The notes beneath the pieces were generated by a model, which worked only from the letters and a program-made list of their open reading frames with translations, did not search any database and was not told where the DNA came from. Positions 8,162 through 14,667 of a stretch of 20,485 nucleotides of DNA are shown here, piece after piece. This DNA is from a virus (taxonomy: Duplodnaviria; Heunggongvirae; Uroviricota; Caudoviricetes), in IMG/VR virus record IMGVR_UViG_2568526635_000006, positions 1 to 20,485 of that record, one strand, 5' to 3'. A program made the translations under genes and the position numbers. Numbering within the stretch: the first letter of the stretch is position 1; each line of letters opens with the position of its first letter.

Positions 8162-8177
8162 TTACTCTAATAAATCT
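8161..8177 (+). promoter_or_regulatory. C1-operator-like 17-mer at the left border of the R-M cassette
   Basis: ATTACTCTAATAAATCT matches the consensus at 15 of 17 positions and overlaps the stop codon of the HAD-like gene. Confidence 0.35.
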
Positions 8178-8199
8178 TGATTTTTAAAGCAGAGAAAGT

Positions 8200-8231
8200 G
8201 AAAATAAAAACATGCCGCAAGGCGCGGCATG
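8200..8231 (-). terminator. Rho-independent terminator oriented for the minus strand, probably ending the hsdR transcript
   Basis: CATGCCGC-aaggc-GCGGCATG hairpin; on the minus strand it is followed by TTTTTATTTT. About 195 nt downstream of the hsdR stop. Confidence 0.5.
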
Positions 8232-8259
8232 TATCCAATCAATCACAGGAGCTGAAAAT

Positions 8260-8346
8260 ATGAACACGGCATTCAAAATCATTATGACCGCGATCTATTT
8301 CTGGCTGTTCTCTATCACTTTTGGCAGCATTGTCGCGCATAGGTAA
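8260..8346 (+). CDS. Candidate 28-aa hydrophobic peptide (single predicted transmembrane helix)
   Basis: ATG 8 nt after AGGAG; product MNTAFKIIMTAIYFWLFSITFGSIVAHR. Lies between the minus-strand terminator and a 10-bp-stem hairpin (8378..8405), antisense to the hsdR 3' UTR. Could be a small membrane or toxin-like peptide, or spurious. Confidence 0.3.
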   Translation: MNTAFKIIMTAIYFWLFSITFGSIVAHR

Positions 8347-8425
8347 GGGGAGTATATTAGCCATTTGGAACCCCACGGTCTCTTGCGGGTTTAATTAAGA
8401 ACCCGCAAGAAAAACACGAATTGGG

Positions 8426-11542: not shown

Positions 11543-11663
11543 AGCGCATCCTTTGTGCCGTCTGGCAAGGGCCGGAAGGGCTTTAAGGGCGACTTCCGGC
11601 GTGTAAAAAATAGTCTCTATATAGACCGGATGTTAAGGTGATCCGGTCGGTAGCAATGGTCAA
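11543..11663 (-). promoter_or_regulatory. hsdS-hsdR intergenic region with two stem-loops; probable separate hsdR promoter and partial terminator
   Basis: Inverted repeats GACCGGAT-n9-ATCCGGTC (11624..11648) and GCCGGAAG-n14-CTTCCGGC (11571..11600), with a T-run on the minus strand between them. Confidence 0.35.
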
Positions 11664-12932
11664 TTAGTTACTGATAGTTTCAGGTTTGGGAAAACTGAAC
11701 AGTAAATCACGATAGTACTCGTATTGTTTCTGGCGCAACTCGATTTCACGCGGAAGACCTTCGGTGATGGAATTGGTCAAAGCATCAAATTTATCCAGTA
11801 ATTTCACTATTTTTTGTTGTTCAACTAGCGATCTTTCAGGAGAATCAGGAAATGGTACTGGTATCATAAGTTTTCTTAAGTTATCATTATAAAGTCTTTT
11901 AATAGTTCCACCTTCAGATATTCCCCATTTTGCTATTTTATAGAAATAGAATAAATATTTATTTAAAACTATTTTTTCATTATTTTCAATCCAGACAATA
12001 TTGCTATCCTGGAAATATGATTCCCTACCATCAAATATAACAGTCCTGCCGATGGTCCCACTGGCAGAAATCAATACTTCGCCAACTTTAGGATAACTAT
12101 ATTTTTCTTTAAATTCATTAAATAGTTTTCTAGATATATAGGAATCGGGTTCCTTACCAAATGTCCCAATTTTATAAAATGGAATCTCTCCCTCAGAAGA
12201 TGTTTGTGATTTTAGGATTCGTTTACACATACGAACTTCACCAATTTCCCCCAAAGCTTTCCACTCAACCTCACCCTCTTTAAAACTCAACAACTGGTCG
12301 CGATAGTAGTTGTATTGTTTTTTACGCATGCTAAGCTCAGCGGTAAGCTCAGCGGTAAGTGCAGTAAATTTGTCCAGAATCCGAACGATTTCAGACTGGA
12401 TGGCTAGGGACTTTTCCGGGTTGTCCGGGCAGGGTAATGGGATTTTGAATCTTCCCATTACGGCTGAGTTCAAGTTGTTAATGGTTGAGCTATTCAACAT
12501 TTCATCAAGATATTTTTGGAAAATATCACTTGTTAAAACGTGAAATAAATAACGTGGATTTAATTTTTCATCGCATCTGACGACCCCCATAAATCCGCCA
12601 AAGTAGTAGTCAATATCAGATTCTATGTAAGCAACTTTACCGACATGTTCACGGCTACCACTTGCTGCGCTAATTAGAATGTCGTTCTTATATAGCTTTT
12701 GCGAACTCTTTACTTTGGTGTCGAACCTCACCACCTTGACATCATTTAAATTTAAACAATTATTAGACAGCGTGATATTGTTAGCGCGAAGCACTTTATA
12801 GCCTTGACCATCCGCGCTTTCACTCGATTTGCTATAAATTAAACCACGTACATATTTTGCGACTTCTCCGAGAGTCTTCCACTCAACCTCAACCCCATCC
12901 AGCAATTTTTCCAGATAACTCATCTCGCTCAT
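11664..12932 (-). CDS. hsdS: Type I restriction-modification specificity subunit (HsdS), 422 aa, EcoR124 (type IC)-like
   Basis: Two AT-rich variable target-recognition domains separated by a conserved central region ending [26 protein letters not shown], with a C-terminal repeat [16 protein letters not shown]. Start overlaps the hsdM stop (ATGA). Confidence 0.9.
12333..12368 (-). repeat. Tandem 12-bp codon repeat encoding TAEL-TAEL, with a degenerate third unit TAL, in the HsdS central conserved region
   Basis: Plus strand AAGCTCAGCGGT x2 (12333..12356) followed by AAGTGCAGTAAA. Minus-strand codons ACC GCT GAG CTT x2. Confidence 0.8.
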
Positions 12933-14491
12933 TTCTGCACCTCGCAGCCTTCAATTTCAGCCACAATCGCATCAATATCTTTACGCAACTGGTCGATTTT
13001 GCTGACCGTGGTTTTCAGCTCAGCATTCAGCTCAGCGATATCGATAATTTCGCGAGTATCTTTCGCTTCCACATAGCTGCTCACCGACAGGTTATAGTCA
13101 TTCGCGACAACAGTCTCAAACGCAACAGATTTCGCCAGATGAGCAACATCTTCCTTGCTGGCAAATACCTGCATAATCTGTTCGATATGAGCATCGGTCA
13201 GAATGTTGTTGTTAGTCTCTTTTTTGAACAGTTCGCTGGCATCAATAAACTGAACTTTGGTATCCGTTTTATGTTTAGACAGCACCAGAATATTGACGGC
13301 AATAGTGGTGCCAAAGAACAGATTCGGTGCCAGTGAAATCACGGTTTCGACATAGTTATTGTCGACCAGATACTGACGGATTTTCTGCTCCGCGCCGCCA
13401 CGGTAAAAAATGCCTGGGAAGCAGACAATCGCAGCGCGACCTTTGGCCGAAAGATAGTTCAGCGCATGTAATACAAACGCAAAGTCAGCTTTGGATTTGG
13501 GGGCCAGAACGCCAGCCGGGGCAAAACGTTCATCGTTAATCAGCGTCGGGTCATCGCTGCCAATCCATTTCACCGAATACGGCGGGTTAGAAACGATGGC
13601 GTCAAACGGTTTTTCATCTCTGAAGTGCGGCTCAGTCAGTGTATTACCCAGCTTGATATCAAACTTGTCGTAGTTGATATTGTGCAAAAACATGTTCATA
13701 CGCGCCAGGTTATAGGTCGTATGGTTGATTTCCTGACCGAAAAAGCCTTCTTCGATGATGTGGTTATCAAACTGTTTTTTCGCCTGCAACAACAGTGAGC
13801 CGGAACCCGCTGCCGGGTCGTAGATTTTGTTAACGCTGGTCTGCCCGTGCATAGCCAGTTGTGCAATCAGCTTGGAGACGTGCTGCGGTGTAAAGAACTC
13901 ACCGCCTGACTTACCGGCATTTGCCGCATAGTTAGAAATCAGGAACTCATAGGCATCACCGAACAGGTCAATCTGATGTTCGTTGAAGTCACCAAGTTTT
14001 AACCCTTCAACCCCTTTCAGAACCGCAGCCAGGCGGGCATTTTTATCTTTAACGGTGTTACCCAGGCGGTTACTGGTGGTATCGAAATCAGCAAACAAAC
14101 CTTTGATGTCAGCTTCTGAAGGATAACCGTAAGCAGAACTTTCGATAGCAACGAAGATGCTGTTTAAATCTGCATTCAGTCTGTCATTAGTATTTGCTTT
14201 CGCAGCTACGTTGCAGAAAAGCTGACTGGGGTAGATGAAGTAGCCTTTAGTTTTGATGGCATCGTCTTTAATGTCATCAGTAATTACGCTGTCATCCAGT
14301 TTCGCATAACAGATACTGTCATCACCGGCTTCAATATAACTGGAAAAATTTTCGCTGATAAAACGGTAGAAAAGTGCGCCCAGAACGTATTGCTTAAAAT
14401 CCCATCCATCGACCGAACCCCTGACATCGTTAGCAATTTGCCAGATTTGACGATGAAGCTCTGCACGTTGTTGAATACTTGTCATTTTCAT
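12929..14491 (-). CDS. hsdM: Type I restriction-modification N6-adenine DNA methyltransferase (HsdM), 520 aa
   Basis: AdoMet-binding motif [11 protein letters not shown] and catalytic motif IV NPPYS; typical HsdM N-terminus. First gene of the minus-strand hsdMSR operon. Confidence 0.92.
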
Positions 14492-14630
14492 CCACTTATT
14501 TCAGGCTTATGTAATTGGCGGTGATTCTACAGCAACTTGGATGCTTTAGCAGTTCGGACATTAGGTAACGAATGACCTGCCTAGAGGTTTGTTAAGACGC
14601 AAAGTGCTGGTGCTTTATGCCTGTGAAGTT

Positions 14631-14660
14631 TATAATTGTGTACACATAACGAGTACACGA
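14631..14660 (+). promoter_or_regulatory. phd-doc promoter -10 (TATAAT) with palindromic autoregulatory operator half-sites
   Basis: TATAAT at 14631..14636, then TGTGTACACA and GAGTACAC palindromes immediately upstream of the RBS GAGGTG. Consistent with Phd/Doc autoregulation at palindromic operators. Confidence 0.5.
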
Positions 14661-14667
14661 GGTGTTT

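Follow-up and report, generated by a model that had tools for sequence, protein, structure and literature searches.

The restriction-modification genes between pap and phd-doc in the window (the whole 20,485-nt stretch of viral DNA analyzed here) very probably belong to the EcoR124/EcoDXXI (Type IC) family; among the alternative alleles that P1-like phage-plasmids carry in the pap-phd variable region, they are the commonest. An hsd locus at this place is already known from hundreds of E. coli plasmid sequences; the finding is real but ordinary. The ORF list shows three intact reading frames, hsdR, hsdS and hsdM, on the minus strand between the two conserved flanks.

7655-8161, plus strand: pap, a HAD/PNKP-type phosphatase and the last conserved backbone gene on the left (Pfam HAD_PNKP; phrog_415; collinear with P1 pap)
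8426-11542, minus strand: hsdR, Type IC restriction/translocase subunit, 1038 aa (Pfam HSDR_N, SWI2_SNF2/ResIII, T1R_D3, EcoR124_C)
11543-11663, minus strand: hsdS-hsdR intergenic region, with a promoter-like TTAACA-18-TATTTT at 11636-11607 and AAGGA before the hsdR ATG
11664-12932, minus strand: hsdS, specificity subunit, 422 aa (two Methylase_S stretches in Pfam)
12929-14491, minus strand: hsdM, N6-adenine methyltransferase, 520 aa (HsdM_N and N6_Mtase, E 3e-121; TIGR00497)
14492-14581, minus strand: region upstream of hsdM, the presumed hsdMS promoter; non-P1 DNA common to all plasmid-borne copies
14592-15269, plus strand: resumed P1 homology, from the humD stop (TTAA) through Pphd to phd and doc
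14668-14889 and 14889-15269, plus strand: phd and doc, respectively (Pfam; collinear with P1)

The first-pass annotation had described a complete Type I gene set on the minus strand, flanked by plus-strand phage genes. Both points were confirmed: the R, M and S frames are full length and match their domain models, and the ORFs and Pfam hits agree on the opposite orientation of pap and phd/doc. The term operon, which it also used, is a loose one. The ends of hsdM and hsdS share 4 nt, but hsdS and hsdR are separated by a 121-bp gap with a promoter-like site, all promoter calls in the hsd region being consensus-level matches only. This arrangement fits the Type IC layout, in which hsdMS form one unit and hsdR is under its own promoter.

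All three proteins match Type I models in Pfam, NCBIfam (TIGR00348, TIGR00497) and PADLOC (REase_I, MTase_I, Specificity_I). As expected for Type I systems, the three genes are separate and intact; HsdR carries PD-(D/E)xK and SF2 motifs, HsdM carries NPPY (as SNPPYS), and HsdS has two target-recognition domains (TRDs). Such families were first defined by complementation, hybridization and antibody cross-reaction (PMC3874209), and members of Type IC have HsdR and HsdM closely related to those of EcoR124I, EcoDXXI and EcoprrI; the assignment made here is based on the close relationship of HsdR and HsdM to EcoR124I, on the EcoR124_C domain and on tandem TAEL repeats in HsdS. HsdM is identical to EcoR124 HsdM (7bst_D) at 517 of 520 positions (99.4%). 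HsdR matches EcoR124I HsdR (2w00) over its full length (2285 bits) with ~99% identity; about 12 substitutions occur in roughly 970 residues of the displayed alignment, and the YD...ELK nuclease residues, GSGKT and DECH are intact. We take these nuclease residues to be D151/E165/K167 in the numbering of EcoR124I itself.

Judged from its sequence, hsdS is the only individual gene of the block, with a TRD pair of its own and two TAEL repeats.

12453-12866, minus strand: TRD1 of HsdS
12258-12452, minus strand: central conserved region
11808-12257, minus strand: TRD2

The repeats are two exact 12-bp units at 12334-12357 in the central region and read LTAELTAEL. EcoR124 HsdS has matching conserved regions at the N-terminus, in the centre and at the C-terminus, whereas the TRDs differ. 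Compared with the phage vB_EcoM-673R5, TRD1 is equal, TRD2 is different, and there are two TAEL repeats instead of three. TRD1 is also distantly similar to that of EcoKI, a likeness too weak for inferring a recognition sequence. The number of TAEL repeats sets the length of the spacer in the target: two repeats in EcoR124I give an N6 spacer, and the three of EcoDXXI give N7, in the target TCA N7 RTTC (PMC3874165). The specificity of the element would thus be set by its own TRD pair together with two repeats; since both TRDs are unlike those of EcoR124, its target should not be GAA N6 RTCG.

Next we mapped the borders of the block by alignment to P1 (NC_005856). Positions 61-8350 of the window correspond to P1 76193-84482 and positions 14592-19827 to P1 87970-93204, which leaves 8351-14591 (6,241 bp) as non-P1 DNA. 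The window aligns to P1 over 66% with ~96% identity, and to vB_EcoM-673R5 over 97%. Collinear P1 genes stand on both sides (25, 26, pmgL-pmgS and pap; phd, doc, pdcB, lpa, pacA and pacB), as in a Punavirus backbone, and the DNA adjoining the block (8162-8350 and from 14592 on) is 94-98% identical to P1. The alignment hence bears out the earlier proposal that the hsd set occupies the pmgT-humD interval, and the mapping which had been suggested gave two exact borders.

8350/8351: left junction, ...GCGCATAGGTAAGGGG then AGTATATTAGCC...; in P1 the pmgT start codon comes here
8351-8425, minus strand: 75-bp tail downstream of hsdR, with a stem-loop at 8376-8409 and no U-tract on either strand
14582-14591: TAGAGGTTTG, probable remnant of the 5' end of a lipoprotein gene (8/10 match in a three-way alignment of the window, pRHB27-C17_2 and p1_035148)
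14591/14592: right junction, where P1 homology resumes

The stem-loop at 8376-8409 has a fold of -25.6 kcal/mol (z about -4). The 75-bp tail is specific to the P1/IncF lineage; it is missing from chromosomal Type IC loci and from p15ZF15-2-1.

An operator-like site, a terminator and a small hydrophobic ORF had been assigned to the left border of the cassette. All three exist, but they belong to the P1 backbone.

8161-8177, plus strand: C1 repressor operator OpmgT (former Op88), P1 annotation transferred by alignment
8162-8205: predicted PpmgT promoters, overlapping OpmgT, transferred in the same way
8200-8232, minus strand: intrinsic terminator for transcripts in the hsdR direction, with the hairpin at 8210-8232 (9-10 bp GC-rich stem then UUUUUAUUUU; terminator scan)
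8261-8347, plus strand: 28-aa hydrophobic ORF MNTAFKIIMTAIYFWLFSITFGSIVAHR, preceded by AGGAG

OpmgT reads ATTACTCTAATAAATCT in the window and ATTGCTCTAATAAATCT in P1, with a G-to-A change at 8164. The terminator (fold -17.5 kcal/mol, z = -5.1) is also present in P1, P7 and RCS47. An alignment of P1, P7, RCS47, 673R5, phi456 and the window shows that the 28-aa ORF is kept in frame whatever cargo comes next; it has no family match in NCBIfam or PHROGs. Because these features lie inside P1-homologous DNA, the true left border is 8350/8351 and not 8162.

The view that the block is an unusual or unexplained replacement did not survive the comparison with other genomes. The P1 GenBank record already names pap-distal and phd-doc DNA as flanking the EcoDXXI and R124/3 hsd loci, and identical junctions occur in hundreds of plasmids. 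Type IC hsd loci were reportedly found to be flanked by P1 DNA by Tyndall et al. in 1997, and the window has flanks of this type, with P1 Op88-region DNA downstream of hsdR and phd-doc upstream of hsdM. The linkage has thus been published since 1997 and noted in the P1 GenBank entry since 2004, and carries little weight as a discovery. PMC12707154 cites Tyndall et al. 1997 (Mol Microbiol 23:729), and the pmgT-humD interval is described as the highly variable 'region 8' of P1-like phage-plasmids (PMC9603915).

In PLSDB, pmgS-pap occurs in ~636 plasmids; pap is joined to hsdR in ~253 of these, and only 26 carry the P1-type block. The left junction was detected in 537 PLSDB records and the right one in 719, the two lists being counted separately. 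The pap-hsd-phd-doc arrangement was present in 505 of 5,426 complete E. coli genomes, IncF copies included; like the other prevalence figures, this one reflects BLAST coverage thresholds in redundant databases. The same hsd block occupies the same site in the phages vB_EcoM-673R5 (ON470615) and phi456 (OR339795), and the plasmid pEcQE11-421-2 (NZ_CP048823) is 100% identical to the window over 7600-15300. PGAP already annotates the exact sequence of the block in many plasmids. P1 is therefore an atypical reference for this interval: ~40% of the sequenced P1-like plasmids carry hsd and a few percent the P1 block, so that a difference from P1 should not be read as unusual.

The pap-phd interval of P1, P7 and RCS47 has the same conserved flanks as the window (pap, OpmgT, the small ORF and Pphd-phd-doc, 94-98% identity). 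Between them lie plus-strand accessory genes, which end in hot and humD and are served by the C1-controlled PpmgT; the window has the convergent minus-strand hsd genes instead. A 'long' form of the hsd allele occurs in pRHB27-C17_2, where pap-hsd is followed by the lipoprotein remnant, upfM-hot, an lxr-like gene, humD and phd. In p1_035148, a plasmid without hsd, hot is preceded by a complete lipoprotein gene, and the same hsdM/lipoprotein junction was found in an unrelated E. fergusonii plasmid. The 'long' form, with hsd, the truncated lipoprotein gene, hot and humD, is rarer than the compact form. Taken with the 10-nt remnant at 14582-14591, this sequence comparison suggests an insertion that was followed by a deletion. 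The hsd genes would have been joined once to the variable operon of the P1 family, by illegitimate recombination at gene boundaries. The first product would have kept hot and humD as well as the 5'-truncated lipoprotein gene; the compact form of the window would have arisen through a subsequent deletion reaching as far as the humD stop codon. Homologous recombination between the conserved flanks may then have carried this compact form from one P1-like element to another; along with phd-doc, the form was probably also captured by IncF plasmids, with IS1 truncating the left flank. The order of these events is drawn from parsimony, since the 'long' form could instead have re-entered P1-like plasmids by recombination. 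The 8/10 match of the putative remnant could also represent microhomology that belongs to the end of the cassette.

The reverse history, in which hsd filled the interval first and was later replaced by the P1-type pmgT-humD operon, is unlikely. The hsd genes are the most frequent single allele, and a minus-strand terminator suited to hsdR lies in P1-homologous DNA, and P1 has no minus-strand gene close by that would require one. However, the 5' portion of a pmgT-like gene is common to P1, P7, RCS47 and the D6-like relatives, as is humD, and both the C1-controlled PpmgT and the small ORF point rightwards, which is sensible only for plus-strand cargo. Furthermore, the 'long' form keeps hot and humD beside hsd, the window keeps the scar, and chromosomal Type IC loci share the coding block only. 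The direction of the terminator is an ambiguous argument for an ancestral hsd, because P1 lxr is also transcribed leftwards.

The hsd gene set of the window may well be active. In EcoR124I, HsdS and two HsdM subunits form a methyltransferase, which N6-methylates adenines in a bipartite target; the addition of two HsdR subunits produces an ATP-driven translocase and nuclease, which cuts unmodified DNA away from the site. By analogy, a lysogen would restrict incoming phages and plasmids, and the phage-plasmid's own DNA, as well as the virions made from it, would carry protective methylation. It is highly unlikely that the locus is an inactive relic, passively carried and with neither restriction nor modification. 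Damage does occur elsewhere: hsdS is disrupted by an IS in NZ_CP089136 and perhaps also in phi456, and the 673R5 record has fragmented hsdR and hsdM calls. The three ORFs of the window, in contrast, are full length; HsdR and HsdM are ~99% identical to biochemically active EcoR124 proteins, with intact motifs, and HsdS has both TRDs and all conserved regions.

With the hsd genes convergent, PpmgT is left without an accessory operon to drive. One could imagine that transcription from this C1-repressed promoter crosses the 28-aa ORF, enters hsdR from its 3' end and so ties restriction to the state of the prophage, but such a switch is improbable. In a lysogen PpmgT would be silent and restriction fully on; upon induction, or in a cell without C1, RNA antisense to hsdR would damp restriction. 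The IncF copies are without the promoter DNA, the P1 flank ending at IS1 at the equivalent of window 8267, which would fit the switch but represents a single event. The IncF replicons are not P1-like and are assumed to be without C1.

The composition of the block is in part as the first-pass annotation had described it. The GC content is 43.0%, compared with 48.0% and 49.1% in the two flanks; no backbone window of 6,241 bp falls below 47.3%, and the difference between cassette and backbone is clear in 500-bp windows (Mann-Whitney, p = 1e-18). The lowest value is that of hsdS (37.2%; 31.3% in its TRD2). AT-richness thus holds for total GC; the GC3 values of hsdR (0.487) and hsdM (0.511), however, are backbone-like, and hsdS alone deviates (0.355). 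The same annotation would have taken the block as ordinary core content if it recurred at the same position in P1-family genomes with backbone-like composition. Half of this was found: the position is the same in many P1-family genomes, isolated phages included, and the GC3 of hsdR and hsdM is backbone-like, but the block is still an accessory allele and not core.

A repeat search of 7900-14900, together with a comparison by eye of four junction sequences, gave no direct or inverted repeat pairing the borders and no target-site duplication; the only repeats were internal to hsdS (the TAEL repeat and the duplicated conserved regions). The ORF list agrees with the repeat search in that 8162-14667 contains no transposase ORF, as had been noted, and a transposon or IS-bounded cassette was not found. 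An integrase-borne island or integron cassette would bring a site-specific recombinase gene and an att or attC site at its border; no recombinase ORF lies between pap and phd. The borders of the cassette fall at gene boundaries without repeats, and an Rfam scan of the whole window detected nothing there, C4 and isrK occurring only in the far-right immunity module. That a mobile cassette of defence genes, be it a transposon, an integron cassette or an island with an integrase, entered the window's genome recently and in this lineage alone would agree with the AT-richness of the block and its absence from P1, P7 and RCS47, but it is barely credible in the face of identical junctions in hundreds of plasmids and two other phages, backbone GC3 in hsdR and hsdM, and the lack of a transposase or integrase ORF, terminal inverted repeats or a target-site duplication.

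Chromosomal Type IC loci of E. coli have the same gene order and ~95% nucleotide identity over hsdR and hsdM; their homology ends with the coding block (window 8426-14497), they have no P1 flanks, and the TRDs of their hsdS differ. In strain CI5 such a locus adjoins a tRNA-Leu gene, a location consistent with the leuX-anchored 'hotspot 37' island (PMC12707154). Chromosomal loci were also considered as donors of the cassette tails and rejected, as sensitive blastn gave no homology outside the coding block. Two points are modestly new: the 'long' form with its 10-nt scar, and the fact that the hsd module conserved across contexts is essentially the coding block alone. In the IncF-type copies the left P1 flank is down to 84 bp and ends at IS1, whereas the window has a full P1-like backbone; in the IncF plasmid pZH193 the IS1 lies immediately left of the flank end, at the equivalent of window 8267. 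Among the phages, vB_EcoM-673R5 has another TRD2 and three TAEL repeats, and in phi456 the hsdS frame is split by an inserted ORF of ~1 kb, named 'putative baseplate hub protein' in the record. EcoR124I and EcoR124II of plasmid R124, the Type IC prototype, share with the window the subunit sizes of 1038 and 520 aa, the HsdS conserved regions, two TAEL repeats (reported for EcoR124I, PMC3874165) and P1-derived DNA downstream of hsdR; both of their TRDs differ. For the EcoDXXI locus (pDXX1), the P1 record notes that P1 84263-84482 is 96% identical to DNA downstream of hsd and P1 87969-88647 (phd-doc) 98% identical to DNA upstream of it. The junction regions are the same two as in the window, while the TRDs differ and EcoDXXI has three TAEL repeats to the window's two.

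The hsd block lies in a segment of a P1-like phage-plasmid, which spans tail gene 7 through pacB plus an immunity module. P1 alignment covers ca. 66% of the window with an identity of ca. 96%; an alignment to phage vB_EcoM-673R5 covers 97%. The first-pass annotation had placed a complete Type I hsdM-hsdS-hsdR set on the minus strand between pap and phd-doc. This was borne out by the open reading frames and by Pfam, NCBIfam and PADLOC, all of which assign the three products to Type I subunits:

7655-8161: pap, left neighbour of the hsd reading frames
8426-11542, minus strand: hsdR, 1038 aa, with an EcoR124_C domain
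11664-12932, minus strand: hsdS, 422 aa
12929-14491, minus strand: hsdM, 520 aa
14668-15269: phd-doc, right neighbour of the hsd reading frames

The hsdM and hsdS genes overlap by 4 nt; between hsdS and hsdR are 121 bp with a promoter-like site and a Shine-Dalgarno sequence.

In an alignment to P1 (NC_005856), window 61-8350 corresponds to P1 76193-84482 and window 14592-19827 to P1 87970-93204; the non-P1 DNA is therefore 8351-14591 (6,241 bp). The replaced P1 block, pmgT-humD, is exactly the one that the first-pass annotation had named. The left junction (...GCGCATAGGTAAGGGG joined to AGTATATTAGCC) comes directly after the stop of a 28-aa ORF, at the point that corresponds to the start of pmgT in P1; the right junction (...CTAGAGGTTTG joined to TTAAGACGC) is at the humD stop codon. 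A search for direct or inverted repeats pairing both cassette ends found none, and no transposase or recombinase ORF was found between pap and phd, in agreement with the earlier description of borders free of transposase and inverted repeats.

The window opens (1-60) with an IS629/IS3-family terminal inverted repeat (reverse complement TGAACCGCCCCGGGTTTCCTGG), with 97-100% identity to the IS629 ends of Stx phages. The P1-homologous part begins at base 61, 74 nt before tail gene 7 reaches its 3' end; hence gene 7 is interrupted, and the prophage copy in the window may have a defective tail. At the other end, an extra immunity-I-type module (19830-20485) follows pacB, where P1 has c1 next; RCS47 has the same layout past pacB, with the ant gene between its pacB and c1. 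The module contains:

19924-20002: isrK-like RNA
20047-20134: C4 antisense RNA
20189-20410: Icd-like ORF, 73 aa

The left flank of the cassette carries the following features:

8161-8177: operator OpmgT/Op88 of P1, a C1 operator by P1 correspondence
within 8162-8350: predicted PpmgT promoters, backbone
8210-8232: hairpin terminator (whole intrinsic terminator 8200-8232), minus-strand U-tract, leftward orientation
8261-8347: hydrophobic ORF, 28 aa, with a good Shine-Dalgarno sequence

The operator, terminator and hydrophobic ORF had been described as features of the cassette border. They exist, but judging from the alignments they belong, like the promoters, to the P1 backbone: window 8162-8350 has 95-96% identity across P1, P7, RCS47, 673R5 and phage phi456, regardless of the downstream cargo. 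The operator reads ATTACTCTAATAAATCT in the window and in NZ_CP048823 and ATTGCTC... in those five elements, with a G-to-A change at position 8164 in the sub-lineage of the window. The frame of the 28-aa ORF, the first one 3' of the C1-controlled PpmgT promoter, is kept in every P1-family genome examined (three amino acid variants, two synonymous sites); it lacks annotation in the P1 record, and no family was found for it in NCBIfam or PHROGs. Since the U-tract of the terminator is on the minus strand, hsdR transcripts would end there in the window element. The same leftward terminator is common to P1, P7 and RCS47, where all adjoining genes point rightwards. It may protect pap and pmgS from antisense transcription; alternatively, it may have been left over from an hsd-type arrangement. 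The 75-bp tail that belongs to the cassette itself (8351-8425) forms a strong stem-loop that lacks a U-tract.

The cassette has a GC content of 43.0%, compared with 48.0% and 49.1% for the two flanks; backbone windows of the same length never drop below 47.3%. The deficit is concentrated in hsdS (37.2% in the whole gene, 31.3% in its second target-recognition domain), while GC3 of hsdR (0.487) and hsdM (0.511) is indistinguishable from that of backbone genes (0.44-0.56). The AT-rich signal noted in the first-pass annotation is therefore real, yet it does not reflect a foreign codon style; it stems mostly from the hypervariable target-recognition domains and the amino acid composition of HsdR.

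The linkage of Type IC hsd genes to P1 DNA is already known and common. The P1 GenBank record relates three P1 segments to hsd flanks: 84263-84482 shares 96% identity with the DNA that lies downstream of EcoDXXI hsd, 84399-84482 shares 98% with the DNA that follows the R124/3 hsdR gene downstream, and 87969-88647 (phd-doc) shares 98% with the DNA found upstream of EcoDXXI hsd. By coordinates, these segments coincide precisely with the window's two junction regions. The flank relations reportedly come from Tyndall et al. The pmgT-humD interval is the highly variable 'region 8' of P1-like phage-plasmids (PMC9603915). In PLSDB, 636 plasmids have the pmgS-pap backbone, 253 have pap joined to the hsdR 3' end, and 26 have P1's own pap...pmgT-humD...doc arrangement; 200-nt probes for the left and right junctions hit 537 and 719 records, respectively. 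At least 80% of pap-hsd-phd-doc occurs in one place in 505 of 5,426 complete E. coli genomes. Plasmid NZ_CP048823 is 100% identical over window 7600-15300, and the isolated phages 673R5 and phi456 carry the block at the same site. The anatomy proposed earlier stands but its implied unusualness does not: hundreds of plasmids and two phages have the arrangement, and the P1 record notes its flank relations.

In phi456 (19622-22059) the hsdS frame is broken by an inserted ORF of ca. 1 kb, recorded as 'putative baseplate hub protein'; this is possibly an IS transposase, by analogy with NZ_CP089136, in which an IS5-like element separates two hsdS pieces. The 673R5 record has hsdR and hsdM in fragments. 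Some phage copies are therefore disrupted or contain sequencing frameshifts.

The IncY P1-like plasmid pRHB27-C17_2 matches the window in its left junction and hsd block up to 14590. Beyond this point it has 376 bp of a lipoprotein gene truncated at the 5' end, then an upfM-hot segment, lxr-like genes, humD and phd. In plasmid p1_035148, which has no hsd, the lipoprotein gene is complete (MLHRVLWKSVIVGAILAISGC...) and lies immediately upstream of hot. An E. fergusonii plasmid (NZ_CP079892) has the same hsdM/lipoprotein junction as pRHB27-C17_2, with unrelated DNA left of hsdR; in this phage-plasmid-like replicon chromosomal-type apbC and metG directly follow humD (8701-11992), replacing phd-doc. 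In the window, 14582-14591 (TAGAGGTTTG) matches the first bases of the lipoprotein remnant at 8 of 10 positions and directly adjoins the humD stop. The simplest reading of these sequences is probably a two-step history. The hsd genes would first have taken the place of the 5' portion of an accessory operon of the P1 family. A second event, a deletion with one end within the lipoprotein remnant and the other at the humD stop, would have produced the compact form. The compact form now dominates: PLSDB holds the full long form, with remnant, hot and humD, in ca. 18 records versus ca. 700 with the hsdM 5' end only.

Alternatively, the 10 nt at 14582-14591 could be microhomology native to the cassette end and not a remnant. 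A wider alternative, in which hsd is ancestral in the pap-phd interval and the P1 block secondary, draws weak support from the frequency of hsd and from the minus-strand terminator; against it, the C1-controlled promoter points rightward, humD is universal in other lineages and the long form exists. In the same interval P1, P7 and RCS47 have mosaic plus-strand accessory genes, all ending in hot and humD. It is unlikely that the locus is an inactive relic, because its subunits are intact and 99%-identical. The lack of transposon or integrase features, and junctions that are common to many elements, contradict a recent insertion of either kind.

A second class of left-junction matches begins at window 8267. 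On the IncFIA/FIB/FII conjugative plasmid pZH193 (NZ_CP014498, 11249-19202), IS1 (IS1A) is directly left of this flank end, and hsd accompanies phd-doc-pdcA as a P1 DNA fragment, with an IS5 on the right at a distance of ca. 1.2 kb. What the P1 record notes for R124/3 matches this type of flank. The hsd block adjoins the phd-doc addiction module and both enter IncF plasmids together; in pZH193 restriction system and P1 addiction module appear to have been transferred as a single piece. The chromosomal Type IC loci examined, one beside a tRNA-Leu gene in strain CI5 and a second in another island, have ca. 95% identity limited to the coding block (window 8426-14497). The CI5 position is consistent with the leuX-anchored hotspot 37 (PMC12707154).

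HsdM shares 517 of 520 residues with the EcoR124 M protein (PDB 7bst). HsdR gives a full-length alignment to EcoR124I HsdR (2w00; 2285 bits), with about a dozen substitutions among the ca. 970 residues shown; the nuclease residues YD...ELK (D151/E165/K167 in our own numbering of EcoR124I), GSGKT and DECH are all intact. In EcoR124I the M2S complex is the methyltransferase, acting on a bipartite site, and R2M2S is the form that translocates and cuts unmodified DNA; by analogy, the hsd set would protect a lysogen from other phages and plasmids. HsdS has all three conserved regions of EcoR124 HsdS (N-terminal, central and C-terminal) but differs in the target-recognition domains. Its central region, LTAELTAEL, is coded by two exact 12-bp repeats (12334-12357). 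The spacer of a Type IC enzyme is set by how many TAEL repeats are present, being N6 with two (EcoR124I) and N7 with three (EcoR124II, EcoDXXI and EcoprrI) (PMC3874165). The 673R5 HsdS has the first target-recognition domain of the window, a different second one and three TAEL repeats, while both domains of pZH193 HsdS are unlike those of the window; as alleles, the three display the classic Type IC diversification. Together with the likeness of all three subunits to EcoR124 and the TAEL repeats, this comparison shows that the window locus is a genuine Type IC hsd set carrying a specificity allele of its own.
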